64,000 nt of DNA from a virus. Under the pieces are notes generated by a model. That model had not been told where the DNA came from. It did no database searches and worked only from the letters and a program-made list of their open reading frames with translations. The DNA lies in IMG/VR virus record IMGVR_UViG_3300050821_006235, positions 1-64,000 of that record; one strand, given 5' to 3'. Positions 20,642-57,100 of this stretch are shown here, piece by piece. The position numbers and the translations under genes are program-made. Position 1 is the stretch's first letter. Each line of letters begins with the position of its first letter.

Positions 20642-21052
20642 TCACTCCCCGCGGATGACAGTCCGGTCCGCCGCCAGCACCTCATCAGCGGCACCGTCCC
20701 GCGACACCACGAACACCGGGATACCCGCCGGGATGCCGAGCGCCACCCGCTCCTCCGCTGATGGCATCCGCGAGGACACGTCCGTGTGGGCGTCGATCGT
20801 CACAACGGCCGGCTCGGGGATCACGTCCCGAACGTAACTGCGCTGGCCCGGCTCGGTCACGACCAGCCCCTCGTTGCGGAGGATCCCGATGGCCCTGCGA
20901 ACGGTCTCCCGCGAGACGCCGTGCTCTTGGATGAGGGTCTGTTCTGACGGGACGGTCTGCCCTGGTGCGAGCTGCCCGGAGGTGATCCGTTCTCGGAGCA
21001 GCCGCGCGATCCGCGCGTATCGCGGCTCGTACGAGTGCGGGTCCAAGGTCAC
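20642..21052 (-). CDS. GntR-family regulator (KorSA/TraR-like position)
   Basis: YARIARLLRERITSGQLAPGQTVPSE..GVSRETVRRA..EGLV. Confidence 0.9.
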   Translation of the reverse strand: MTLDPHSYEPRYARIARLLRERITSGQLAPGQTVPSEQTLIQEHGVSRETVRRAIGILRNEGLVVTEPGQRSYVRDVIPEPAVVTIDAHTDVSSRMPSAEERVALGIPAGIPVFVVSRDGAADEVLAADRTVIRGE

Positions 21053-21109: not shown

Positions 21110-21307
21110 ATGACGAGTTGGCAATACCTTCGGAACGTGGACAGCCCACCGCCCATCCCGGAGTTCACCGTCACCCGATCACCTGACGGCGGGTGGCTGG
21201 CCGTCCACAAAGGTGACCCGCGGATCACCGTCACCGCGCCGGACCACGCCCGGCTCGCCCTGATGTGCGCCGCTGCCCGGATCCGCCGCACGTGGGCGCT
21301 GGCATGA
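21110..21307 (+). CDS. hypothetical protein
   Basis: Divergent from GntR. Confidence 0.55.
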   Translation: MTSWQYLRNVDSPPPIPEFTVTRSPDGGWLAVHKGDPRITVTAPDHARLALMCAAARIRRTWALA

Positions 21308-22278: not shown

Positions 22279-22709
22279 GCTTCGAGAAGATCACCCTCCA
22301 CGTCGCGGTCTGCGACAACTGCGGCCCGGACTGGTGGGACGACGGCCAGACCGAAGCGCCACCCTCCTTCAGCAACCCCTTCGAAGCCCGCGCGACCCTC
22401 ACCAGCGACTTCGAGTGGCGCATCACCCGGCAGATCGACGGCCGGTTCCGCATGCTGTGCGGCCCCTGCGCCGCCCGTGAGGACTGCGACACCTACGGCC
22501 ACCTGTGGAAGGCCGCAGACATCGACCCCACCGTCCCAAGCCCGCCGCGCGCCGCCCCGATCGAGATGTGCCGCAGGTGCGGGAAGGTCCGCCGTGAGGA
22601 CACCCCGCCGATCGACCACCCCGAGTCGATGACGGCCCTCCTCGGCGACGAGCAGGAGAACTGGCTCGCCCTGGTGGACGAGACCCTCTTTCCCAAGGAG
22701 GCGGCATGA
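22275..22709 (+). CDS. Cys-rich hypothetical protein
   Basis: Three CxxC motifs. Confidence 0.65.
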   Translation: MSFEKITLHVAVCDNCGPDWWDDGQTEAPPSFSNPFEARATLTSDFEWRITRQIDGRFRMLCGPCAAREDCDTYGHLWKAADIDPTVPSPPRAAPIEMCRRCGKVRREDTPPIDHPESMTALLGDEQENWLALVDETLFPKEAA

Positions 22710-23374
22710 CCGCCCGGCAGGGTGGAGTCTGCCTGCACTGCGGCAACACAACCGAACGCCCCATCAGGCGCGGACTCTGCGACAACTGTTACAAACACTC
22801 CCGCAAGCCCGAGAACCGGGATGCGTTCGATGCTGCCTACCCGATCATCAAGAAGCCTTCGGCCGCGCCCTCTCGCTTCTTTACAGCCCAAGGACTCGAC
22901 CTCTCGTCCGCTGATGACAGGTTCAGAAGCCGCTTCTGGGCCAAGACCGATCGGTCGGGCGCGTGCTGGGTCTGGACCAAGCACTGCACGCCCCAGGGCT
23001 ACGGACAATTCACAGTGAGCAGGGGCTCCTTCAGAGGCGCCCACTCCGTGAGCTACGCCCTCACTCATGGGATCGTCCCGGTCGGCATGCACGTCTGCCA
23101 CACCTGCGACAACCCGCCATGCGTGCGGCCCGATCACCTGTTCCTGGGAACCGCCAAGGACAACTCGGACGACATGTGGTCTAAGGGGCGTCAGGGAACG
23201 CGTCACCCCGGCATTGAGCGAGCCAACGCTCGCCTGACCGACGACGACGTCCGCGCGATCCGGGCCGTGTCGCCCTACTTCGGCCGCACAACTGATCTGG
23301 CACGCCAGTACGGCGTCTCCGACACCACCATCCGAAAGATCCTCAGGCGCGAGAAGTGGAGGCACGTCGCATGA
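22706..23374 (+). CDS. HNH homing endonuclease (HNH_3 type)
   Basis: RFWAK..CWVW..GYG..AH..CHTCDNPPCVRPDHL..GT..DN; C-terminal HTH. Confidence 0.9.
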   Translation: MTARQGGVCLHCGNTTERPIRRGLCDNCYKHSRKPENRDAFDAAYPIIKKPSAAPSRFFTAQGLDLSSADDRFRSRFWAKTDRSGACWVWTKHCTPQGYGQFTVSRGSFRGAHSVSYALTHGIVPVGMHVCHTCDNPPCVRPDHLFLGTAKDNSDDMWSKGRQGTRHPGIERANARLTDDDVRAIRAVSPYFGRTTDLARQYGVSDTTIRKILRREKWRHVA

Positions 23375-23628
23375 GCGAGCACTGGTCTGAACGGGCCCTT
23401 TGCGCCGAGGTTGGCGGTGACCTCTTCTTCCCGGAGAAGGGCGGCTCGACGTTCGAGGCGAAGAAGGTCTGCAAGGCGTGCGACGTCCGCGAGGAATGCC
23501 TTCAGGACGCGCTCGCCCGCGACGACCGCTACGGGATTTACGGCGGCCTTTCCGAGCGGCAGCGGCGGAGGCTCACCCGTGGGCGGGTGGCCGCAGCCAC
23601 GAAGACCGGACTGGCGGAGGCGTCATGA
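23371..23628 (+). CDS. whiB: WhiB-family Fe-S transcription factor
   Basis: ALC..DLFFPEKGGS..AKKVC..C.VREECL..GIYGGLSERQR. Confidence 0.95.
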   Translation: MSEHWSERALCAEVGGDLFFPEKGGSTFEAKKVCKACDVREECLQDALARDDRYGIYGGLSERQRRRLTRGRVAAATKTGLAEAS

Positions 23629-24851
23629 AGTTCATCTGGCGCACGACCCCCGACACCGGCGTCGTCGCCGCGGTGGCACGGCAAACCACCGCCGCAGCCG
23701 ACCTCGCCAGCATCGACGGCCAGGACCGGCTCGCCGACCCGCGAACCAACCCCGCCGTGCGCGGGCACGCCGACCAGCTCCGCGACACCCAGCACCGGCG
23801 CGCCCTGGACGCCGACCACGAACGGTTGCTGCGCCGGCACCGCGTCGCCGACACCCGCGCCCAGCACGCCGAGCGCGCTCTCCAGGCACTCCAGGCCGCC
23901 CGTGAGGCGTCGTCGGCAGCCCGGTCGGTCCTCGCCCTCGATCAGGGCCGCACCCGGTTCATGGGTGTCGCTCTGACCGCGTCCCTGGCGCTGTCGGCAG
24001 GGTCCGCGATGGGTGTCGCCGCTCTCGCCGAGCGACTCGGTGCGCCCGGCCAGGTCGGGTACATCGCCGAGGTCGGCCTGACCGGTCTCACCACCACTGT
24101 GATCCTGTACCGGTCGCATCTCGCCCAGCACGGCGGACGTCTGACCGGCTGGAAGGCGTGCGTTCTGTGGCTGCTCATGGTCGGCCCGCTGGTCTCTTCG
24201 ATGGTCGCGAACGCGTTCGGGACGGGGCCGGTCGGGGTGGCCTGCTCGGTGGGTGCGGCGGCGTTCTCGCTCCTGTCGTACGTGATCGCCGACGCGAGCG
24301 CGGAAGCGCTCCGGGTTCAGGCGGCGCTGGTGTCGGGAGCGGACGAACTGGAGCTGCGTGAGATCGCGACCGGCGACGAGTTGTTCACCGCGCGGGCCGA
24401 ACTGGGCATCGAACCGAACCTCGTTCAGTCCGGTCTGTCGGACCGGTCCGCCGAGGCGGTCCAGGCCGGTCCGGAAATCCAGACCGAGACCGGACTCCCG
24501 GACCGGTCTGCGGACCCGGACCGCGAGCCGGTCCCGGACCGGTCCGAGACGGCGGAACCAGGCCGCAATGGGGACCGGACCGAGACCGGACCGAAGACCC
24601 GGACCCAGACCGCCAAGAAGACCGCACCGAAGAAGCAGACCCGGACCGGACCCAAGACCCGGACCGACGTGCTCCTCGTCAGGGCCCGTGCCCTCGACGA
24701 GGCCCACCTCGAAGACACCGGCCGGCACATCTCCGCGGACAACCTGCGGGCCAAGCTCCACATCGGCAAGACGGCCGCCCTGGAGCTGGTCCGGCAGGTC
24801 CGCTTCACGCCGATCGACGACGAAACGACCGCCGAGGAGGCGACCGGATGA
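23625..24851 (+). CDS. Spd-like (SpdB/DUF2637-type) multi-TM plasmid-spreading protein with C-terminal HTH
   Basis: Coiled coil, about 4 TM segments, repeat linker, HISADNLRAKLHIGKTAALEL; in traB operon. Confidence 0.65.
   Translation: MKFIWRTTPDTGVVAAVARQTTAAADLASIDGQDRLADPRTNPAVRGHADQLRDTQHRRALDADHERLLRRHRVADTRAQHAERALQALQAAREASSAARSVLALDQGRTRFMGVALTASLALSAGSAMGVAALAERLGAPGQVGYIAEVGLTGLTTTVILYRSHLAQHGGRLTGWKACVLWLLMVGPLVSSMVANAFGTGPVGVACSVGAAAFSLLSYVIADASAEALRVQAALVSGADELELREIATGDELFTARAELGIEPNLVQSGLSDRSAEAVQAGPEIQTETGLPDRSADPDREPVPDRSETAEPGRNGDRTETGPKTRTQTAKKTAPKKQTRTGPKTRTDVLLVRARALDEAHLEDTGRHISADNLRAKLHIGKTAALELVRQVRFTPIDDETTAEEATG
24430..24666 (+). repeat. cluster of co-oriented GACCCGGA / GGACCG repeats (clt/TRS-like)
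   Basis: Perfect GACCCGGA at 24513, 24596, 24638, 24656; variants at 24495, 24531, 24602. Confidence 0.65.
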
Positions 24852-25084: not shown

Positions 25085-25308
25085 GCGCCGCCGCCGAGCA
25101 GCACGCCAAACGGGAGCGCCACACCCTGAGCAGGGCGCGGAAGGCCCGCACGCCGTTGCAGAAGACCGCGCCGTGGTTCGACGCGTGGCGGCGCCGGGTC
25201 TCCGAACTGCCACCGGAGGCGGCGGACGCGGAAGCGGTCGCATTGACCGCGCATCTGAAGGCAGCCATCGAGCGGCTCAAGCCACAAGACGGGGGTGACG
25301 GATCGTGA
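25081..25308 (+). CDS. hypothetical protein
   Basis: GTGA coupling. Confidence 0.55.
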   Translation: MSAAAEQHAKRERHTLSRARKARTPLQKTAPWFDAWRRRVSELPPEAADAEAVALTAHLKAAIERLKPQDGGDGS

Positions 25309-25787
25309 CCGGTACGGCCGAAATGAATGGGCAATCGGGCAAAGGCATCGACCCGGTGCCCTTCGAGGATGCGGCCCATCGCGACGCAGGCGCGCGCGCG
25401 GGCGACGCGCGCGCACGAGACGAGCAGATCGTAACAGACGGCGACGACGAACCGCCGCCACCCGCCGACCTGTTCGACGTCGAAGCGCTCATCAACCTGT
25501 GGGCGGACCAGGCCAAAGCCACCTCCGCCCGCATCTGGGCATGGTTCAGCGGCGACCGCGGAGTAGGCCGGGAGCACCCCGGCTCGCCCGTGGACCTCTT
25601 CACCTACTGGTGGCGTGCACCCATGGCCGGCAGCTCGCAGGCATTGCGGTGGGTGCAGCGCATTGACGCGCTGATGGTCGCCGCCCCGGGTGTCGCTGGT
25701 TTCACCGCGTTCCGCTGGCTGTGGGAGCGCCCCCTACGCCGCTACCTGTTCATCCTGCTCGCGTTCATCACCTGGAGGTACTCGTGA
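25305..25787 (+). CDS. membrane protein of transfer region
   Basis: Trp-rich, C-terminal TM. Confidence 0.65.
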   Translation: MTGTAEMNGQSGKGIDPVPFEDAAHRDAGARAGDARARDEQIVTDGDDEPPPPADLFDVEALINLWADQAKATSARIWAWFSGDRGVGREHPGSPVDLFTYWWRAPMAGSSQALRWVQRIDALMVAAPGVAGFTAFRWLWERPLRRYLFILLAFITWRYS

Positions 25788-26245
25788 CCACGTTGGCCGC
25801 CCCGTACAGCGTGGGTGTCCCGCAGCATTACACCGCCATCTCGATCTCAGCGGCCGTGGTCGCCCTGGTGCTGGTGCTGCTGCTCCAGTGGCGTCCGCTG
25901 GGCCGGTTGAGCTTCCTCGTCCCGTACCTGTGCATAGTCGCCGGGCTCGGTTTCGCCGCCGCGTTCCTGCGGTCGTGGGCGCACAGCTTGGCCGGGCTGG
26001 GCCGTACGACGATCCCGTACGTCGGTGTGGCGGTGCCGATCGTCGTTGCCGTGGTCCTGCTGTTCATCGTCCTGTACGACCTGTGGCCGGGTCATCCGAC
26101 GAACCGGACGACGGCTCTGGCGGCGACGTTGCTGCCCGCGTTCGGCCCGGAGATCGGCGGGTTCATCGGCTACGCCCTGGCTACCGCCCTGTCGTGGCTG
26201 GCGGTCACCGGGGCTGCCCTCATCGCCACAACGTTCGGAGTCTGA
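25784..26245 (+). CDS. multi-TM membrane protein (Spd-like)
   Basis: 4-5 hydrophobic segments. Confidence 0.75.
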   Translation: MTTLAAPYSVGVPQHYTAISISAAVVALVLVLLLQWRPLGRLSFLVPYLCIVAGLGFAAAFLRSWAHSLAGLGRTTIPYVGVAVPIVVAVVLLFIVLYDLWPGHPTNRTTALAATLLPAFGPEIGGFIGYALATALSWLAVTGAALIATTFGV

Positions 26246-26247
26246 CC

Positions 26248-27090
26248 ATGGAACTGCTGACCTTGTGCTTCGTCCTGGCGTGGACGATGCGGCACTGGTG
26301 GGACGGCCGCAAGAACGACTACCGGTCCCCGGACGGCGACTACCGGCAGCGGGTGCGGGGTGCTTCCCAGCGGCACGCCGGGCAGCGGTTCGCCGCCGGT
26401 TGGGGCCTGTACCAGCTCCGCCACGGGTGGGGGCCGATGGCCGCCGACGTCCGTGACGGGTGGGACGGCGCCCATGCGGCGGCCGACCGGTGGCGAGGAG
26501 GCGAAGCCGACCGGCCGACCATCCGCGACGCGTGGCGGGGCGGGTGGGGCGGCGCCGCACGGCCTGAACCGGCCATCCCACAGCGTCCCGGCTCGCCCGG
26601 CCCCGCACCCGCACCCGCACCGATTCCCGTGCCGACCGCGCCCAACGTCCCGGTCAACCCGACCAGGACCACACCCGACACCACAACCGGAGGAACCATG
26701 GCTGAAACCGCGACCGGCGAAGTCAACATCGGCGTCTACCGCCTGCACCTGCGTGTCGTCATCCGTGACGCCACACAGAGGATGGAAGACGCCGCCCGTC
26801 GTATCGCCGATGCCGACGCGGCGATCACCGCGCGGGGCGCCACCCACGACAGCCTGTCGGGCGCCGGGCTCGGCCCGCAGACCACCGGCGGTATGGCCGC
26901 CCTCATGGAGTACGCGCTCGAAGAGAGACGCGAGGCCGGGCAGGCGCAGGCGCGAGCCGAGGCGGAGCGGGCCACCGCCGAGGCCGAACTCGCCAACCTC
27001 GACGCCCAGGGCCACACCACCATCGAGGAAGCCGTCGGCGCGGCGTCCGCACCGGTGGCGACCGACACCACCTTCTACCAGCGGGTCTGA
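26248..27090 (+). CDS. TraA-like accessory transfer protein; possible internal start at 26698
   Basis: Pro-rich linker, GGAGGAACC-ATG at 26698, helical C-terminal domain; directly upstream of traB. Confidence 0.6.
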   Translation: MELLTLCFVLAWTMRHWWDGRKNDYRSPDGDYRQRVRGASQRHAGQRFAAGWGLYQLRHGWGPMAADVRDGWDGAHAAADRWRGGEADRPTIRDAWRGGWGGAARPEPAIPQRPGSPGPAPAPAPIPVPTAPNVPVNPTRTTPDTTTGGTMAETATGEVNIGVYRLHLRVVIRDATQRMEDAARRIADADAAITARGATHDSLSGAGLGPQTTGGMAALMEYALEERREAGQAQARAEAERATAEAELANLDAQGHTTIEEAVGAASAPVATDTTFYQRV

Positions 27091-27142: not shown

Positions 27143-29074
27143 ATGAGCATGCAGCAGGCCGAGCAGGTACGGGCCGAACTGCCGCGCACCCTTGCCCCGC
27201 CCATCGCGAGGTCGGCGAGGTCATCGAGGACGGCGAAGGCGGCGGGTCGTCACGGGTGGCGGCTCCGTAAGCAGATCTCCCCGCTCGCCGCCATGGTGGG
27301 TGTGTGGGTGGCCGGGTGCGTGCTCCGCTGGACGGGCCTGTCCTGGTGGATGGCACTCGCCGCTGGTGCCGCATGCACCGCTCTGGGCGCGGCGGCGTCG
27401 GTGTGGCGGCTGAACCGGAAGATCGAGCGCGTCTACGCCGCGGCCGTGCTGATCGCCATCACCCTATGGGCGACCGCCGCAACCCGGTACGGGATCGGCC
27501 GGCCGATGCCCGCACTGCTCGCCGGTGGTGGGGGACTGCTGGCGTTGCCGTGGTGGTGGCATCACCGGCTGCGCGGCTCCGGCAAACACGACCCGGAGGT
27601 GCTGCCCGAGGACGCGGAGGAGGACCCGCGCATCGGCCAGTGGGCTGCCACCGTCGCACGTCCGGGCGGCCCGCTGACCGATTCCCGCCTGGTCGAGTGT
27701 GAGGACATCCGCGGCGGGTGGGCCGGAACCATCGAGATGCTGCGCGGCAACACCGCCCGCGCCGTGATGGCCACCGCCGACATCGGCGCCGCGTTGAAGC
27801 TCAAGGCGGGGAGCATCGTCATCGAGCCGCCGCCCGAAGGCGAGTTGCACCTGGCGAAGATCCTGGTGCTGCCCGACAACCCGCTCGCGAGGCGTGTGGA
27901 CTGGACCGGCCCCACCATCGACGTTGAGTCCGGGGTGTCGGTGCTCGGCTGGTACGCGGACGGGGAACCGGTCCACTACAGGCATTACCGGCCCGGCTCC
28001 GGCCCGATCCATGACCTGATTTCCGGGTGCACCGACTCGGGCAAGTCCCGCACCGTTGACCAGCTCCTCGCGGAGGAACGCCAGTCCGGTGTGATCGTGT
28101 CGCACGTGATCGACCCGCAGGGCGGCCAGTCCCTGCCGGACTGGCAGGACAACGTCGATAGGTACGCCCGCAGCATCCAGGAGGCGGTCTTTCTGCTGAT
28201 GCAGGCACGGGACCGCATGTACGCCCGCAACGCCTTCCTGGCGTCCGTGAAGTGGGTCGACGACAAGGGTCGCGGCCGGGTCGGCATCGGCCAGTTCACA
28301 CCGTGCGACCCGCGCCACGGCCTGCCGATGCTGTCCATCACCATCGACGAAGCGCAGACCGTCCTCGCCGACGTGGCGTGCAAGGTGCTGGTCGAGGAGA
28401 TGATCGGCATGTCCCGCAAGTGCGGGATCAAGTTCCGGCTCATCACCCAGGTCCCGCTGTTGCCGTCCCTCGGCAACTCCATGGTGATCCGGGACGCGGT
28501 CGCGGCCGGGAACGTCATCGTGCTCAGAACGGCGAACAGGCTCACCGGGCAGGTCGCCCTGAACGGGACGCTCCCGGTGGACCCGTGCAGCCTGCCGAAG
28601 CAGTGGCCCGACGGATCCACCACCTCCGGGCTCGGATTCGTGTCCGCGCCGGGCGCCGACCGTGCGGCGACGATGCGCGTCGGGTACGTCGAGGACGTCT
28701 TCCACTGGGCGACCACCGGCGACCCGGCCGTCTTGGAGCCGTACACCGGGCCGCCAGCCCAGGGCGGCGACGGAGCGTCCCAGGAGACGCCACAGCCCAC
28801 CGCCGTCCCCGACGACCCCGACCAGCAGCGGATCGGCGAAGACACCGTCCTGGCCTACCTCGCCGCGCACGCCGGCCAGGACATCGCCCGCGGCGAGATG
28901 TTCAACACCATTCAGGAGACCGTCGCGCCCGTACCCGCGTTGCGGACCCTGACCAAGGCCCTCACCGACCTCTCCGCACCCGACGTCCGGCTGATCGAGC
29001 GGACCGGGCGCGGCATGTACAGGATCACCGACGCCGGCAGAGCAGAGCTGGAACGGCGCGGCGTCGCAGCCTGA
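27143..29074 (+). CDS. traB: FtsK/SpoIIIE-type conjugative DNA translocase (TraB/TraSA-like)
   Basis: N-terminal TMs, Walker A GCTDSGKS, IDPQGG, Walker B ITIDEAQ, RKCGI..ITQ, C-terminal winged helix. Confidence 0.85.
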   Translation: MSMQQAEQVRAELPRTLAPPIARSARSSRTAKAAGRHGWRLRKQISPLAAMVGVWVAGCVLRWTGLSWWMALAAGAACTALGAAASVWRLNRKIERVYAAAVLIAITLWATAATRYGIGRPMPALLAGGGGLLALPWWWHHRLRGSGKHDPEVLPEDAEEDPRIGQWAATVARPGGPLTDSRLVECEDIRGGWAGTIEMLRGNTARAVMATADIGAALKLKAGSIVIEPPPEGELHLAKILVLPDNPLARRVDWTGPTIDVESGVSVLGWYADGEPVHYRHYRPGSGPIHDLISGCTDSGKSRTVDQLLAEERQSGVIVSHVIDPQGGQSLPDWQDNVDRYARSIQEAVFLLMQARDRMYARNAFLASVKWVDDKGRGRVGIGQFTPCDPRHGLPMLSITIDEAQTVLADVACKVLVEEMIGMSRKCGIKFRLITQVPLLPSLGNSMVIRDAVAAGNVIVLRTANRLTGQVALNGTLPVDPCSLPKQWPDGSTTSGLGFVSAPGADRAATMRVGYVEDVFHWATTGDPAVLEPYTGPPAQGGDGASQETPQPTAVPDDPDQQRIGEDTVLAYLAAHAGQDIARGEMFNTIQETVAPVPALRTLTKALTDLSAPDVRLIERTGRGMYRITDAGRAELERRGVAA

Positions 29075-31672: not shown

Positions 31673-31987
31673 ATGACGATCGACATCTCGGGTCTCGACA
31701 AGGGCGCCGTCCTGGCCGCCTTGTGGAACAACGCCGCCCTGCCACCGAACCACGCCGTAGTGCACCCCCGCACCCGCCCGATGACCGTTGACGAGGCCCA
31801 CAAAGCCTTCATCGCCGAGGGCGGCCACGGCTTCGACTACTACCAGGACCGGATTTTGAAGTTCCACCTCGGAGCCGACGAGTTCGACCCGCGGTGGTAC
31901 GACCGCGACAACGGCCAAGGCCTCGCCGAGCGCGTCATCGAGCACCTGCGCGTCACCGGTTCCGTGGACAAACTCGCTGACGCATGA
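31673..31987 (+). CDS. conserved hypothetical protein
   Basis: IDISGLDKGAVLAALWN..FDYYQDR..YDRDNGQG. Confidence 0.75.
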   Translation: MTIDISGLDKGAVLAALWNNAALPPNHAVVHPRTRPMTVDEAHKAFIAEGGHGFDYYQDRILKFHLGADEFDPRWYDRDNGQGLAERVIEHLRVTGSVDKLADA

Positions 31988-32979
31988 CCGAGGTCGAACC
32001 GGCCGCCACTCCCCTACCGGCCCTCGCGGTCCACGAGCGCCCCGCCTTCGACCCGTACGAGGTGTACATCGCCTCCCTGGCCTCCCCCGAGTCCAAGCGG
32101 ACCATGCGCGGCGCCCTCGACCGGATCGCCCGCATGCAGACCGGAGACCCCGACGCCACCGGAGCATGGCAGCCGTGGTGGCTGCTCCGCTACGAGCACA
32201 CCACCCAGATCCGAGCCGACCTGATCGCCGCGGGCCACTCCCCCACCCACGTCAACAAGCACCTCATCGCTCTCCGCCGAGTGCTACGCGTGTGCTGGCG
32301 GATGCGCCTGATGTCGGCCGACGAGTACGAGCGGGCGCGCGACATCGAGAGCGTGACAGGCGAACGGCTCCTGGCCGGGCGGGACATCCATCGTGACGAG
32401 CTGGCCGCGATGCTCCGCGTCTGCGCCGAGACCGAGGGCGCAGCCGGCATCCGCGATGCAGCCATCATGGCGGTGCTGTTCTCCACCGGCCTGCGCCGGT
32501 CCGAGATCGCCGGGGCGCTGCTGGAGTGCTACAACCCCGGCGAACGCTCACTGAAGATCATCGGCAAGCGGAACAAAGAACGGGTCGTCTACGTCACGCC
32601 ATCCGCCGTCGCAGTACTCGATCGGTGGCTGCACCTGCTCGACATTCGGCGCGGGCCGATGTTCCGGCCGATCCACAAGACCGGCGTTATCAGCAACGGC
32701 GCTATGACGCCCCGAGCGGTCGGCTACATCGTGGACCGAACCCGCCGAAAAGCAGGATTGCCGCTGCTGGCCACTCACGACTTCCGCCGCACCTACACGG
32801 GCGATCTGCTGGACGCGGGCGTAGACCTGTCGACCGTTCAGAAGCTCCTAGGGCACGCCTCGCCGACGACCACCGCACGGTACGACCGGCGCCCCGACCG
32901 CGCGCTGAGGGACGCCTCAGACCTGCTGAGCCTGCCATCTCCAGAGCCCCTTCGGGACGAGCCAAGGAGCGAGCTGTGA
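31984..32979 (+). CDS. XerC/D-like tyrosine recombinase (resolvase type)
   Basis: RD..TGLRRSE, GKRNKER, HDFRR, LLGH, RYD catalytic residues. Confidence 0.92.
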   Translation: MTEVEPAATPLPALAVHERPAFDPYEVYIASLASPESKRTMRGALDRIARMQTGDPDATGAWQPWWLLRYEHTTQIRADLIAAGHSPTHVNKHLIALRRVLRVCWRMRLMSADEYERARDIESVTGERLLAGRDIHRDELAAMLRVCAETEGAAGIRDAAIMAVLFSTGLRRSEIAGALLECYNPGERSLKIIGKRNKERVVYVTPSAVAVLDRWLHLLDIRRGPMFRPIHKTGVISNGAMTPRAVGYIVDRTRRKAGLPLLATHDFRRTYTGDLLDAGVDLSTVQKLLGHASPTTTARYDRRPDRALRDASDLLSLPSPEPLRDEPRSEL

Positions 32980-35234: not shown

Positions 35235-36026
35235 ATGTCACCCGACCATCCCCCGCCCAAAATCGACCTCGCGAACGCCTCACCGTCCCGCGTCTACAAC
35301 GCCCTGCGAGGCGGGAGCGGACACTACCTCCCGGACCGGTCCGTCATCGCCGGGATCAAGGAGTTCGAGCCCGGAATCGCGTTGCTCGCCGCCCGCAACC
35401 GGGCTTTCCTCGGCCGGGTGGTCCGCTACCTCACCGCGCAAGGTGTCACGCAGTTCCTGGACTTGGGGTGTGGTCTGCCCGAGCGCCCGAACGTCCACGA
35501 GATCGCCTGGGAAACCGAGCCGGCGGCCCGGGTCGTCTACATCGACAACGACCCGAACGTCTTGGCCAACGTGCACGCGCTCGTGTCCGGCGACCACCGA
35601 ACCGCGTACCTGGAAGCGGATGTGCGCGACGTTGAGGCGATCTGGGCGTCGCCGCAGTTCGCGATCCTTGACCCCGATCGGCCGATCGGGTTCCTGGCGT
35701 TCACCCTGCTGCATTTCCTGCACCCCGCCGACGACCCGGCCGGGGTCGTGGACTGGCTCGGCGAACACTCGGCCCCGGGCGGCTACTTGGCGCTGTCGCA
35801 TCTCAGCCATGAGCTGCTCGACGCCGATGGGCGCGTCGAGGCGCAGGAGGTGTTCGACGCGGCCATCGCGGGCCTGATCCACATCCGCACCCGCGACGAG
35901 ATCGCCGCCCTGCTCGGGGACCGTGAGCTAGTTGAGCCTGGTCTCGTCCCCGTCGCCGCGTGGCGGCCGGACGAGCCTGCCGCCACTACCCGGCTGGTGA
36001 ACTTCGGCGCGGTCGCCCACCTGTGA
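35235..36026 (+). CDS. SAM-dependent methyltransferase (actinobacterial DUF574/Methyltransf_19 type)
   Basis: RVYN..GG..NRAFLGRVVRYL..QFLDLGCGLP..NVHE..VYIDNDP..PGLV..WRP. Confidence 0.92.
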   Translation: MSPDHPPPKIDLANASPSRVYNALRGGSGHYLPDRSVIAGIKEFEPGIALLAARNRAFLGRVVRYLTAQGVTQFLDLGCGLPERPNVHEIAWETEPAARVVYIDNDPNVLANVHALVSGDHRTAYLEADVRDVEAIWASPQFAILDPDRPIGFLAFTLLHFLHPADDPAGVVDWLGEHSAPGGYLALSHLSHELLDADGRVEAQEVFDAAIAGLIHIRTRDEIAALLGDRELVEPGLVPVAAWRPDEPAATTRLVNFGAVAHL

Positions 36027-54103: not shown

Positions 54104-57100
54104 CAGCGACCGACCGGGAGCGAGTAGCGGTTGTTGGAGTTGCGCAAGTTCATTCGCAACACCGCCTCTTGGATGCCGCGTTCGAGGTCGCGTTGCGCGA
54201 GCACGCTGCCTTGGTTGTGGACGTGGACGACGACGACCGTGTTTCCGCCACCACCGCCACCGCTTGCCCGTGTGACGGGTGTGGTGGTGAACGCGTCAAC
54301 CCCGGTACCGCCGCCGGGTGAGGTGATGTTCGCGATCATCTCCCTGGACAGGACGTACTCGCCGCCGTGCAGAATCGCCGCAATCGGAGCACCGTCTTGC
54401 CCGGGGACGGGGCCGCCCTCAGCGAACCCCAGCATGTGCGTGATGCTGCTGACGCCGCCCGTCACGCCGTTGATCATGTGGCCGATGCCGCCGAAGATCG
54501 ACGAGATCTTGTCCCCGACCCACTGGGCGGCTTTCACGAGGTCATTGAAGATGGTGTGGATGAAATCCCAGGTACCGGAGATCGCCGAGCCGATCCCGTC
54601 GAACGCCGGTTTGATCGCGTTCTTCCACAGCCAGGAGAAGACCGCACCGACCGCGTGCGCGGCCGGTTCAACAATGGTGTGCCACCACCACATGATGATG
54701 CCGGCGAGCATGCGGTAGCCGCCGACGATCCAATCGAACGCCGGTTTGATCGCGTTGTTCCACAACCACATGGCGACCGCGCCGACAAATTTCGATGCGG
54801 TCACGATCGCGTCGAACGTCGGCTTGATCACGGAGTGGTACGCCCACGACACGATCGCGCCGATGCCCTTGAAAGCGGGTTCGATGAGCTGGCGGTACGC
54901 CGTCACAATGACCGCGCCGAGCAGCTTCATGACCGCCAGCCACAGGTTGAACAGCGGCTTGACGAAGTTCCAGCACCAGGTCGCCGCTGCGGCAATGCCG
55001 TGCCACACGGCTTCAATTGCGTGCCACAACCACATGGCCACAGCGACGACCGCGTGCCAGGCGGCCATGATCCCGCGCCAGACGGCCTCCATCGCGTGCC
55101 ACAACCACATGGCACCCGCGGAGATGCCGTGCCACACGGCTTCCATCGCATGCCAGAGCCACAGTGCCCCGGCGACGATGCCGCGCCAGACGGCCTCCAT
55201 GGCGTGCCACAACCAGATTCCGCCTGCGGCGAGGGCGTGCCAGGTCGCGATCATCGCGTCCCGGAAACCCTTGAAATGGTTCCAGGCGTACATGACCCCG
55301 ACCACGAGCAACGCCACCCCCGCGATGATCGCGAGAATGGGCCACGTGGCCGCGATGGTCGCAGCAGCGGCGCTGATCATAGAAATGGTGTACGCCGCTA
55401 CGGCCGCGACGAGGACGACACCTACAGCTATCGCCAGCGCCTTGACCACACCCTCGTGCTTGGACATCCAGTTCATCGCCGTCATGAGCGGGGGGATCAG
55501 CACGTTCCCGACGGTGATCGCCACAGCGTGGAATGCCGACTTGAGCTGGTCGATCTTGAAAGACAGGGTCTGCTGTACATCGGCGAAGCCCTTGACCGCC
55601 GTGCCGCCCTTGTTCCATGCCGCGCTTGTGGCGGCAATGTTCGCCGTCGTCTCTGGCAGGTTCCCGTTGAGCAACTGCATTGCCGCGCGGTAGGCGTTAG
55701 TACTGCCCAACATCTTGGTCATGGCGGTGGCATAGGATTGTGTGATCGGCGAGCCGGACTTCAACAGATCAGAGAACCCGGACGCGCGCTTCTGCATGGT
55801 GGCCCACTGCAACCCCAGGTTGGAGGAGACCGGCCCCAGGGCCTTGGCCGCCTTGGCGTAATCCGCCCAGGTTATCGAGCCACTCTTGACCTCAGAGGCC
55901 AACTTCTGAATGTCGGGGGGCAACGCTTTGAAAGCAACATTGGCGTCGTTGGCAGCCGTCTTCGACTTGTTGAGCGTGTCGACCAGGATGTAACCGCCCT
56001 TGGTGTGGGACGCAATGGCGGCTGTCAGCATGGAGAAGGTCCCCATGAGGCCGTTCTTACCCAGGTCGTGTTCCAGGACCGTGGAGGACAACCCGAGCCG
56101 GTCCATCTCCTTAACGGCCTGGAGGTTGTGAATGGACATACCCCGGATCACAGCCGTGAGGTCATCCACCGCGCCGTGTGCCGTCGCACCGTGCTGAGTC
56201 AGGGTTGCCATGGCGCCAGACAGTTCACCAAAAGTGATTCCGGCCTTTTGGGCGATAGGCGAAACTGTCCCGATGGCGGCGGCGAAGTCCGCCATGGTCA
56301 TCTTGCCGCGCCCAACCGCAACGGTCATGGTGTTCATAACCCGGGCGGCCTCGGCGGGCTGGACGTTAAAGTCCCGCATCACCGTGGTGAGTGCGTTGGT
56401 CACATCGGCGAGCGGGGCCTGCTCGGCGCGGGCACCTTGCGCCGCGACCTTGAGAACATTCAACCCGTCCGCGCCGTGATACGCGCCCTTGGCAATCCCG
56501 TACCCGGACGACTCGACCATGTACATACCGGCGGTCAATTGCGTGGTCGCCGTGCCCGTGTCCACGGACATCTTGAGGATCTCGTCCGACGCGGTCTTGA
56601 GATTGCCGGTGAGCTTGCCGCCGATAACGGAGCCGGTCTCCCCCGCCGACGTCCCGAGCTTGACGATCTGGGATTGGTATTTCGCGGCGGAGTCCACGCC
56701 GTACACGGCGAAGGCGGCGGCACCGATCAGGGTGTCCTTGCCCAGCTTGTTAATAGCACTGCCGACCTTGCCCAGTGCCGCCGACTGACGACCAGCAGCC
56801 GCTTCCGCCCCGGAAGCCTTGGAAACGGCTGTGGTCTGCTCGGCGGCCAGCAGCCGCTCCGCGACGGCCGTTTTGCCCATTGTGTCCCCGAGGACCCGTT
56901 GGGCGTCGGCCGACGCCAGGGACGCGTCCTTCACGAGGTTCTGCTGGACGGCGAGGTCCGCGGCCATCTCGGCTTCCAGCTTGGCGGCGTCGGCCGCCAT
57001 CTTCTCGGCGTCCCCGAGCGCCGTCTGAGCGGCGGCAGCGGCGCCCGCATCAACACCGGCCCCGCCGATCGCCGCACCACCAGAGGCCGCGGCGAGAGAC

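Follow-up and report, generated by a model that had tools for sequence, protein, structure and literature searches.

The characterised clt regions (cis-acting loci of transfer) of the plasmids pIJ101, pJV1, pWTY27 and pSVH1 are clusters of direct repeats that are bound by Tra or TraB proteins, and that of pSVH1 lies beside traB. In pWTY27, pJV1 and pIJ101 they comprise three to nine direct repeats of 5–9 bp within 54–175 bp and, other than the clt of pWTY27, which reaches 16 bp into traA, characterised clt loci are reported to be non-coding (PMC3583192). A different kind of site, sps, is a 12-bp palindrome present in two or three copies inside the spdA coding region, where it encodes SRDD/E and is a binding site for SpdA2; when it is removed by synonymous changes, stability falls and transfer does not (PMC4170104). 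For pSAM2, one of the actinomycete integrative and conjugative elements (AICEs), the available text of PMC9513070 describes no clt motif. Here we analyse an array of short repeated words inside an SpdB2-like gene of the soil-phage genome listed as IMG/VR virus record IMGVR_UViG_3300050821_006235, a single linear contig of 86,077 bp, the first 64 kb of which (positions 1 to 64,000) form the stretch that was analysed, referred to below as the window.

The array (24430..24666, plus strand; consensus about G-A/G-C/A-CCGGACC-G) falls in the linker-encoding part of a 408-codon SpdB2-like gene (23625..24851, plus strand) and sits 2.5 kb upstream of the start of a TraB-like gene on the same strand. 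We consider its most likely reading, to which we give a probability of about 35%, to be that of a clt-like loading site for TraB; its binding, its binder and its role in transfer are what we infer from the form and setting of the array. On this reading the winged helices of a hexameric TraB, encoded downstream, would bind the repeated words, TraB would load onto the circular phage or plasmid DNA, and TraB and Spd membrane proteins together would pump the DNA across hyphal tips or septa. If functional, the array would be a phage-borne cis-acting site whose sequence doubles as that of a coding linker.

Layout and statistics of the word array

An earlier note on this DNA, made from its letters, had listed four perfect copies of the octamer GACCCGGA and proposed that they form a cis-acting locus of transfer that doubles as protein-coding sequence. 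Direct reading places all four on the plus strand, at 24513..24520 in frame 0 (Asp-Pro-Asp) and at 24596..24603, 24638..24645 and 24656..24663 in frame 2 (Lys-Thr-Arg-Thr, Gln-Thr-Arg-Thr and Lys-Thr-Arg-Thr), with spacings of 83, 42 and 18. Two of the near matches it gave, at 24531 (GTCCCGGA) and 24602 (GACCCAGA), are indeed one base off, and the third, at 24495 (CTCCCGGA), is two bases off; its many GGACCG units were counted as nine in 24430–24666. The core repeated word, which the note had missed, is CCGGACC(G) and not the octamer. CCGGACC is present in nine co-oriented copies within 170 bp, four of which carry the octamer, and its extended form is GACCCGGACCG. Three copies lie in frame 0 as Pro-Asp-Arg (24498, 24516, 24534), two in frame 1 as Thr-Gly-Pro (24586, 24646) and four in frame 2 as x-Arg-Thr (24575, 24599, 24641, 24659), all on the plus strand, and the array segment contains only one copy of the reverse complement. 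The words are thus read in three frames of the Spd linker, and the array does double as coding sequence. The linker is able to carry such a site because every word frame encodes disorder-friendly residues (Pro-Asp, Arg-Thr or Gly-Pro).

In the window GACCCGGA occurs 14 times against 6.62 expected (standard deviation 2.29), a count reached by none of 100 dinucleotide shuffles. The ten copies outside the cluster are unremarkable, and it is the clustering that is exceptional. When every octamer of the 86,077 bp was scanned for non-overlapping copies within 200 bp, the best clusters of the genome were CCGGACCG with seven copies and CCCGGACC with six, both at 24497–24666, and the next best had four. 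The array is also the sole multi-copy direct-repeat cluster in the 14-kb module at 20–34 kb, and CCGGACC outside it is dispersed and without strand bias (17 plus, 32 minus).

The contribution of the encoded protein was assessed by codon tests that kept the protein sequence, with 20,000 trials each. Codons redrawn from genome usage gave a mean of 0.94 GACCCGGA copies against the four observed, with 42 trials reaching four, and a mean of 1.93 CCGGACC copies against the nine observed, with no trial reaching nine. Neither observed count was reached in any trial when codon order was shuffled. Codon choice at the words is skewed: the glycine of each of the three Thr-Gly pairs in the linker is GGA (8% of the genome's Gly codons), and the arginine of all four x-Arg-Thr copies is CGG (34% of Arg codons).

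As a genome-wide control, 84-codon segments of 52 open reading frames (16,106 codons) were scored for copies of their commonest 7-mer beyond the protein-based expectation. Linker segments reached z 8.3–8.4 (nine copies against 3.1 expected; highest of 300 resamples six), and the next unrelated coding segment z 3.9. The tandem WLWHAMEAVW-type repeats of the tape measure gene (54922–55341, minus strand) served as an internal control and gave z of about 0, since the protein accounts for all of their DNA repetition; a linker rich in Pro and Thr elsewhere in the genome gave z 1.9 in a single frame. Amino-acid repeats alone, which the earlier note had named as the explanation that would undo its proposal, therefore fail to account for the density (z 8.3–8.4; none of the 20,000 codon redraws reaching nine). 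Taken together, the three frames, the rare codons and the outlying genome-wide score indicate that the array is not a by-product of amino-acid repeats. We conclude that it is a real DNA-level feature, and a more pronounced one than the earlier note had described.

The TraB-like and SpdB2-like proteins and their relatives

The TraB-like gene (27143..29074, plus strand) encodes an FtsK/SpoIIIE-type ATPase of 643 amino acids, with hydrophobic segments within residues 45–115 and a C-terminal winged helix. As a single sequence it has no Pfam, NCBIfam FtsK or PDB match. An exhaustive homologue search returned 739 proteins at E ≤ 0.001, and a profile built from 68 of them matches FtsK (2iuu, E 5.9e-15) and an FtsK/SpoIIIE-type protein (4nh0, E 4.8e-15); profile positions 576–633 (the last 60) match winged-helix domains (E 1.8e-5), and G295, G300 and K301 of the Walker A motif are invariant. 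The FtsK profile match, the winged helix and the N-terminal hydrophobic segments together justify the label 'TraB-like'. The protein has a homologue of 68% identity (P0123) and others, P0124–P0126, the four being 48–68% identical to it, as well as a match of 27.7% identity in the plasmid-phage PhiNon1 (NZ_LT559120.1). It matches 127 plasmid records with identities of up to 39% and a coverage of 56–74%, and nearly all of these records are from Streptomyces or Kitasatospora. The phage collection gave no match to it, and a single-protein scan of viral contigs gave one TraB relative and no Spd relative.

The SpdB2-like protein has a helical N-terminal part, hydrophobic segments at residues 115–135, 176–199 and 202–224 and a weaker one near 145–163, a disordered linker at about residues 265–345, and a C-terminal helix-turn-helix-like domain. 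Three of the membrane segments pass a strict hydropathy cut-off and the fourth is weaker. In size, and roughly in layout, this resembles SpdB2 of pSVH1, which has 409 amino acids, an N-terminal coiled coil, four membrane helices and a C-terminal domain (PMC4447253). The protein has no Pfam, PHROG or NCBIfam match. Neither it nor 17 aligned homologues match PF10935 (DUF2637) in Pfam, and hhalign gave a probability of 0.06% against the annotated DUF2637 protein of a Streptomyces plasmid (L038) and 2.75% against the Spd-like protein of a viral locus (L077). Hints of DUF2637 come from the source name of one homologue and from the nearest Atlas clusters, at a score of 0.86, which is a lead only.

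Searches detected 127 SpdB2-like homologues, the best being P0004, P0017 and P0019 at 47–57% identity. Those that carry a name belong to Thermomonospora, Actinomadura or Spirillospora and so suggest that the host is one of the Thermomonosporaceae. The 127 share the N-terminal and membrane parts, and their linkers and C-terminal domains fall into several unrelated types. Plasmid pAGRA3207_2 of Actinomadura graeca (16 kb) is the only plasmid record with an Spd-like homologue (55% identity over residues 30–252), and it also carries genes for a GntR regulator, a NUDIX protein and an ATP-binding protein.

In four related loci, the strongest cluster that an unbiased octamer scan found fell within the Spd-like linker. 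A metagenome contig (L027) has six copies of GTCCCGGA/CCCGGACC there, and its AGGTCCCGGACC encodes Gln-Val-Pro-Asp, except for one copy in a shifted frame that encodes Arg-Ser-Arg-Thr and uses the rare codon AGG. Locus L010 and the provirus L026 each have five copies of CGCGAACC, which in both loci stand in frames 2/1/2; the viral locus L077 has four of AGCGCCCG as well as six of GAGCGCC. In a Streptomyces plasmid (L039) a single-frame coiled-coil repeat occupies that place. In L011 the best cluster is just downstream of the Spd-like frame, with weaker clusters in the linker, and in L038, L012, L013, L029, L031 and the A. graeca plasmid (L009) it is not in the Spd-like linker. The provirus and the viral locus are further IMG/VR records with Spd-like and TraB modules, IMGVR_UViG_3300049298_000033 (94.5 kb, 90% complete) and IMGVR_UViG_3300047443_000115 (91.6 kb, 97% complete); since the tape measure matches weakly, and in only one of them, neither is close kin of this phage.

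A further group comprises four chromosomal AICE-like elements (L125–L128) of Actinomadura genomes G456, G480, G491 and G477, with TraB proteins 47–49% identical over the full length and a tyrosine recombinase just downstream of TraB. Their upstream membrane protein (401–488 amino acids) has a C-terminal domain related to that of the window, and its Pro-rich end holds an array of 13–17 co-oriented CCCGACC copies in three frames. Resampling of 22 loci, in which small loci give unstable z values (four copies can score z 5), placed the Spd-like low-complexity part as the top segment in six (L010, L077, L125, L127, L128 and L037) and second in four (L027, L126, L018 and L021). In the other 12 it was not among the leaders or not testable; L026 and L022 had no segment with at least four copies under the reading-frame filter. 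That other elements hold other co-oriented words at the Spd linker, some in several frames, lends support to the clt-like reading. The putative C-terminal helix of TraB is ALRTLTKALTDL in the window, ALRTITKALTDL in genome G222, GRTVVLALQQL in the four Actinomadura elements, SALDVSRALDAL in L027 and KHRRVAxxLxxL in L010 and L026, and every helix type goes with its own word, as recognition by TraB would predict, with common descent as a confounding factor.

A TraB loading site weighed against its alternatives

Of the proposal that the array is a cis-acting transfer locus, the part that stands is a DNA-level array of clt-like form within an Spd/TraB operon; the octamer is no more than a candidate for the word of this particular TraB. 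GACCCGGA is indeed the recognition consensus of pSVH1 TraB, as a review confirms, and the S. coelicolor chromosome contains 25 clusters of four such words (PMC5133688). As a clt word here, it is identical to that of pSVH1, and its assignment to this TraB rests on pSVH1. We tallied triplets with gaps of 5–35 across 401 genomes, unpublished G129 included, from the family to which an Actinomadura relative belongs. At least one GACCCGGA triplet was found in 162 of them, mostly in coding repeats, so that on its own the identity with the pSVH1 word counts for little. Spacings were all multiples of three (coding repeats such as Asp-Pro-Asp) at 25 of 30 sampled loci and strictly periodic at the other five; the irregular, multi-frame layout in the window differs from these background clusters.

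The frequency of such triplets is one of several findings that weigh against a TraB loading site. Ten GACCCGGA arrays were followed up with their flanks as clt leads, six of them with non-triplet periods of 13–17 bp (L108–L114 and L117), and were rejected as such, since neither TraB nor Spd gave a match at E ≤ 1e-3 in the roughly 9 kb around any of them. The matches of the TraB-like protein to Streptomycetaceae plasmids, 37–39% identical at most, end before the C-terminal winged helix. The closest TraB among the genomes searched, that of G222 (57% identity), has the same putative recognition helix as the window, yet its 4.9-kb contig has no GACCCGGA and no cluster. The whole G222 genome has only three CCGGACC triplets. 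One of them (C136, L072) is set among unrelated genes and shows no conjugation genes, and the other two (C223) overlap within one 30-bp tandem repeat. A Spd homologue of the window type was found in none of the five genomes searched, G222 included. In the related loci the excess of words over the protein expectation is smaller than in the window (z 3.7–6.6) and in many it is absent. The clt loci of pWTY27, pJV1 and pIJ101 also differ from the array in that they adjoin tra or kor genes, are essentially non-coding and have different words. The window and L027 have the same type of Spd C-terminal domain and a common core, CCCGGAC(C), yet TraB proteins that are about 28% identical with different helices; in this single natural 'recombinant' pair the word goes with the type of Spd gene and not with that of TraB. 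Finally, the codon permutations and tandem periods described below belong on the same side.

Periodic GACCCGGA arrays with periods of 13–31 bp that are not multiples of three were also seen at L079, L080, L082, L083 and L099, and arrays of the same kind in the family genomes G274, G381, G213, G298, G321 and G300. A blastn search of the array against plasmids gave no match, and its low-complexity filter may hide one.

The alternative that survives best is neutral slippage, in which an 11–12-nt unit was expanded in a weakly constrained disordered linker, compensating 11- and 13-nt copies rotated the frame, and the DNA has no function. We regard this as a real possibility, only slightly less likely than a TraB loading site. 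Tandem Repeats Finder detects degenerate tandem repetition with periods of 11, 12 and 36. It resolves 24573–24667 into roughly eight degenerate repeats of a 12-nt unit, together with period-11 sub-arrays, and assigns a period of 18/36 to the 5' half of the array. Two exact 11-nt copies adjoin (24573, 24584) and are followed by a 13-nt copy that restores the frame, so slippage can make both the repeats and the frame rotation. When synonymous codons were permuted within the linker, the mean for GACCCGGA rose to 2.93 and 4,981 of 20,000 trials reached four, making the octamer count ordinary given the linker's own codons; the mean for CCGGACC was 5.99 and 282 of 20,000 trials reached nine, which is mildly unusual. 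Much of the signal is therefore the skewed codon set of the linker, an outcome that copying of a unit would give too. Favoured high-GC codons make up the word and its triplets are common in related genomes, the linkers of 20 homologues are low-complexity and vary between lineages, and the linker of the A. graeca plasmid homologue has a different, CGGGAT-like repeat and a single octamer.

What slippage leaves unexplained is that PDR, xRT and TGP all spell one heptamer, one of them by way of a rare codon; the product of the codon frequencies for the three peptide families together is, by our own calculation, about 0.002. No other coding segment of the genome behaves in this way, and four Actinomadura species with barely alignable linkers keep their co-oriented CCCGACC words above the protein expectation. 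Should slippage be the whole explanation, the locus would serve as a warning that matches to the pSVH1 octamer, common in high-GC genomes, are not TraB sites per se.

It is also conceivable, if doubtful, that the array is an sps-like site for the DNA-binding domain of Spd itself or for another regulator, acting in segregation, spreading or autoregulation of a plasmid-prophage and not in TraB loading. A precedent exists in sps, a site inside an spd gene that is bound by the product of that gene, SpdA2 (PMC4170104). As in that system, a 12-bp palindrome recurs within the spd coding region here: three copies of 10–12 bp, without a strand of their own, span 24439..24546, with CGGACCGGTCCG at 24439 and 24535 and the imperfect GGACCGGTCT at about 24500, and they are translated as (S/P)DRS. 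The perfect 12-mer has three copies in the 86-kb genome, the third (35332–35343) being the single one outside the Spd linker. L027, which has the same Spd C-terminal type, carries the same 12-mer once in its linker. The type of word tracks the type of Spd C-terminal domain in every case seen, but linker and C-terminal domain are adjacent and co-inheritance explains such tracking. The C-termini of five of 17 homologues match helix-turn-helix families; that of the window protein itself has no match to a DNA-binding family in Pfam, PHROG or NCBIfam. Moreover, SpdB2 of pSVH1 is reported to bind double-stranded DNA non-specifically (PMC4447253), and most copies in the array are direct repeats and not palindromes.

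That the words are incidental and that only the protein matters, with PDRS, TGPK, K/QTRT and the basic Pro/Thr-rich tail making contact with, for example, peptidoglycan or DNA, is improbable: TGPKKQTRS does recur just before the C-terminal domain in P0017, P0019 and L027 (as TGPKKRTRS in P0004), PDRS recurs in those same Spd-like homologues, and SpdB2 binds peptidoglycan and DNA (PMC4447253), but such a function has no need of a codon skew towards one heptamer across different peptides, and in L027 other codons (ACC AGG TCC) encode the conserved basic motif.

The clt-like reading can be extended to the proposal that TraB elements of the Thermomonosporaceae, and tailed phages that took up such modules, have their clt written not between genes but in the SpdB2-like linker, as an element-specific three-frame array, and that a temperate phage uses it with TraB to spread its double-stranded DNA genome through the mycelium without virions; in this general form we think it unlikely. 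Were the array in the window a working clt, co-oriented multi-frame words in an Spd linker would be a signature for clt in AICEs and plasmid-phages, where it is mostly unknown, and synonymous recoding would allow a direct test of whether a phage genome spreads through mycelium without virions. A clt in a coding linker would, if true, also explain why pSAM2-like AICEs have no described clt motif.

The surrounding module and comparison with known systems

The record has an estimated completeness of 82% (CheckV) and a G+C content of 60–72%. Among the encoded products are a tape measure protein (PHROG, E 4.4e-52), a minor tail protein, a serine integrase and an exonuclease. The array lies in a plasmid-type module on the plus strand at about 21–33 kb, which has no match in the phage collection; the tail protein has none in the plasmid collection. 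The module comprises, in order, a divergent GntR gene, an HNH endonuclease gene, the 408-aa membrane protein, three small genes, the 643-aa protein, a small winged-helix protein and a tyrosine recombinase. The GntR-family regulator (20642..21052, minus strand; PF00392, E 7.7e-18) occupies the position of TraR/KorA. All three Streptomycetaceae linear plasmids inspected have the gene order GntR, small genes, DUF2637 protein, small genes and TraB homologue, and this shared order of GntR, Spd-like and TraB-like genes favours the clt-like reading. Between Spd and TraB lie three plus-strand operon genes without a family match (25305–25787; 25721–26245, a membrane protein; and about 26242–27090), and the tyrosine recombinase (31984..32979, plus strand; PF00589, E 3.2e-23) is found downstream.

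A 19-nt direct-repeat pair on the plus strand between the GntR gene and the operon (21157..21235) is a candidate operator. Its two repeats (21157–21175 and 21217–21235) are 84% alike, lie upstream of the first operon gene and resemble the TraR repeats upstream of spdB3 in pSVH1. A contig from another soil run (X2) joins 22633 to 23423 through 202 different letters; as this relative carries other DNA in place of the HNH gene (22706–23374), the latter is suggested to be a mobile insertion. Contigs of three other runs match parts of the module at 80–99% likeness. Their cover thins over 24410–24650, with contig ends at 24434 and 24644 in X4; this thin cover was not taken as evidence. No RNA run was listed with this DNA.

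Phage-borne SpdB2 homologues and plasmid-phages with tra genes have already been published. Among the latter, pZL12, pSLE1 and PhiNon1 are actinomycete elements of 59–90 kb that, like the present record, join phage particle genes to plasmid functions; transfer of pZL12 needs its major tra gene, and the accounts available for the three describe no clt. A literature search, outside which the primary clt papers and their supplements lay, turned up no clt lying entirely in the linker of an spd gene. Should the array function as a clt, it would be without earlier example in being confined to coding sequence and in being carried by a tailed phage.

Among short sites read by related proteins, the FtsK orienting polar sequences (KOPS) and SpoIIIE recognition sequences (SRS) are likewise 8-bp words, read by the C-terminal winged helix of a hexameric DNA pump. 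KOPS are, however, dispersed and strand-biased across the chromosome, whereas the words outside the present array show no strand bias. The sps of pIJ101 SpdA2 resembles the array in being embedded in spd coding sequence and visible as a short peptide repeat. It differs in belonging to a small spdA gene (117–163 amino acids) and acting in stability, and no SpdA homologue was identified here.

In form, with four to nine direct copies of a 7–9-bp word in less than 200 bp, the array is that of the characterised clt loci. With the clt of pSVH1 it shares an identical octamer in four co-oriented copies on an element that has an FtsK-like winged-helix TraB. It differs from the pSVH1 locus in being wholly coding and in having CCGGACC(G) as its main word, a distant TraB, a tailed phage as carrier and a host that is probably a member of the Thermomonosporaceae.

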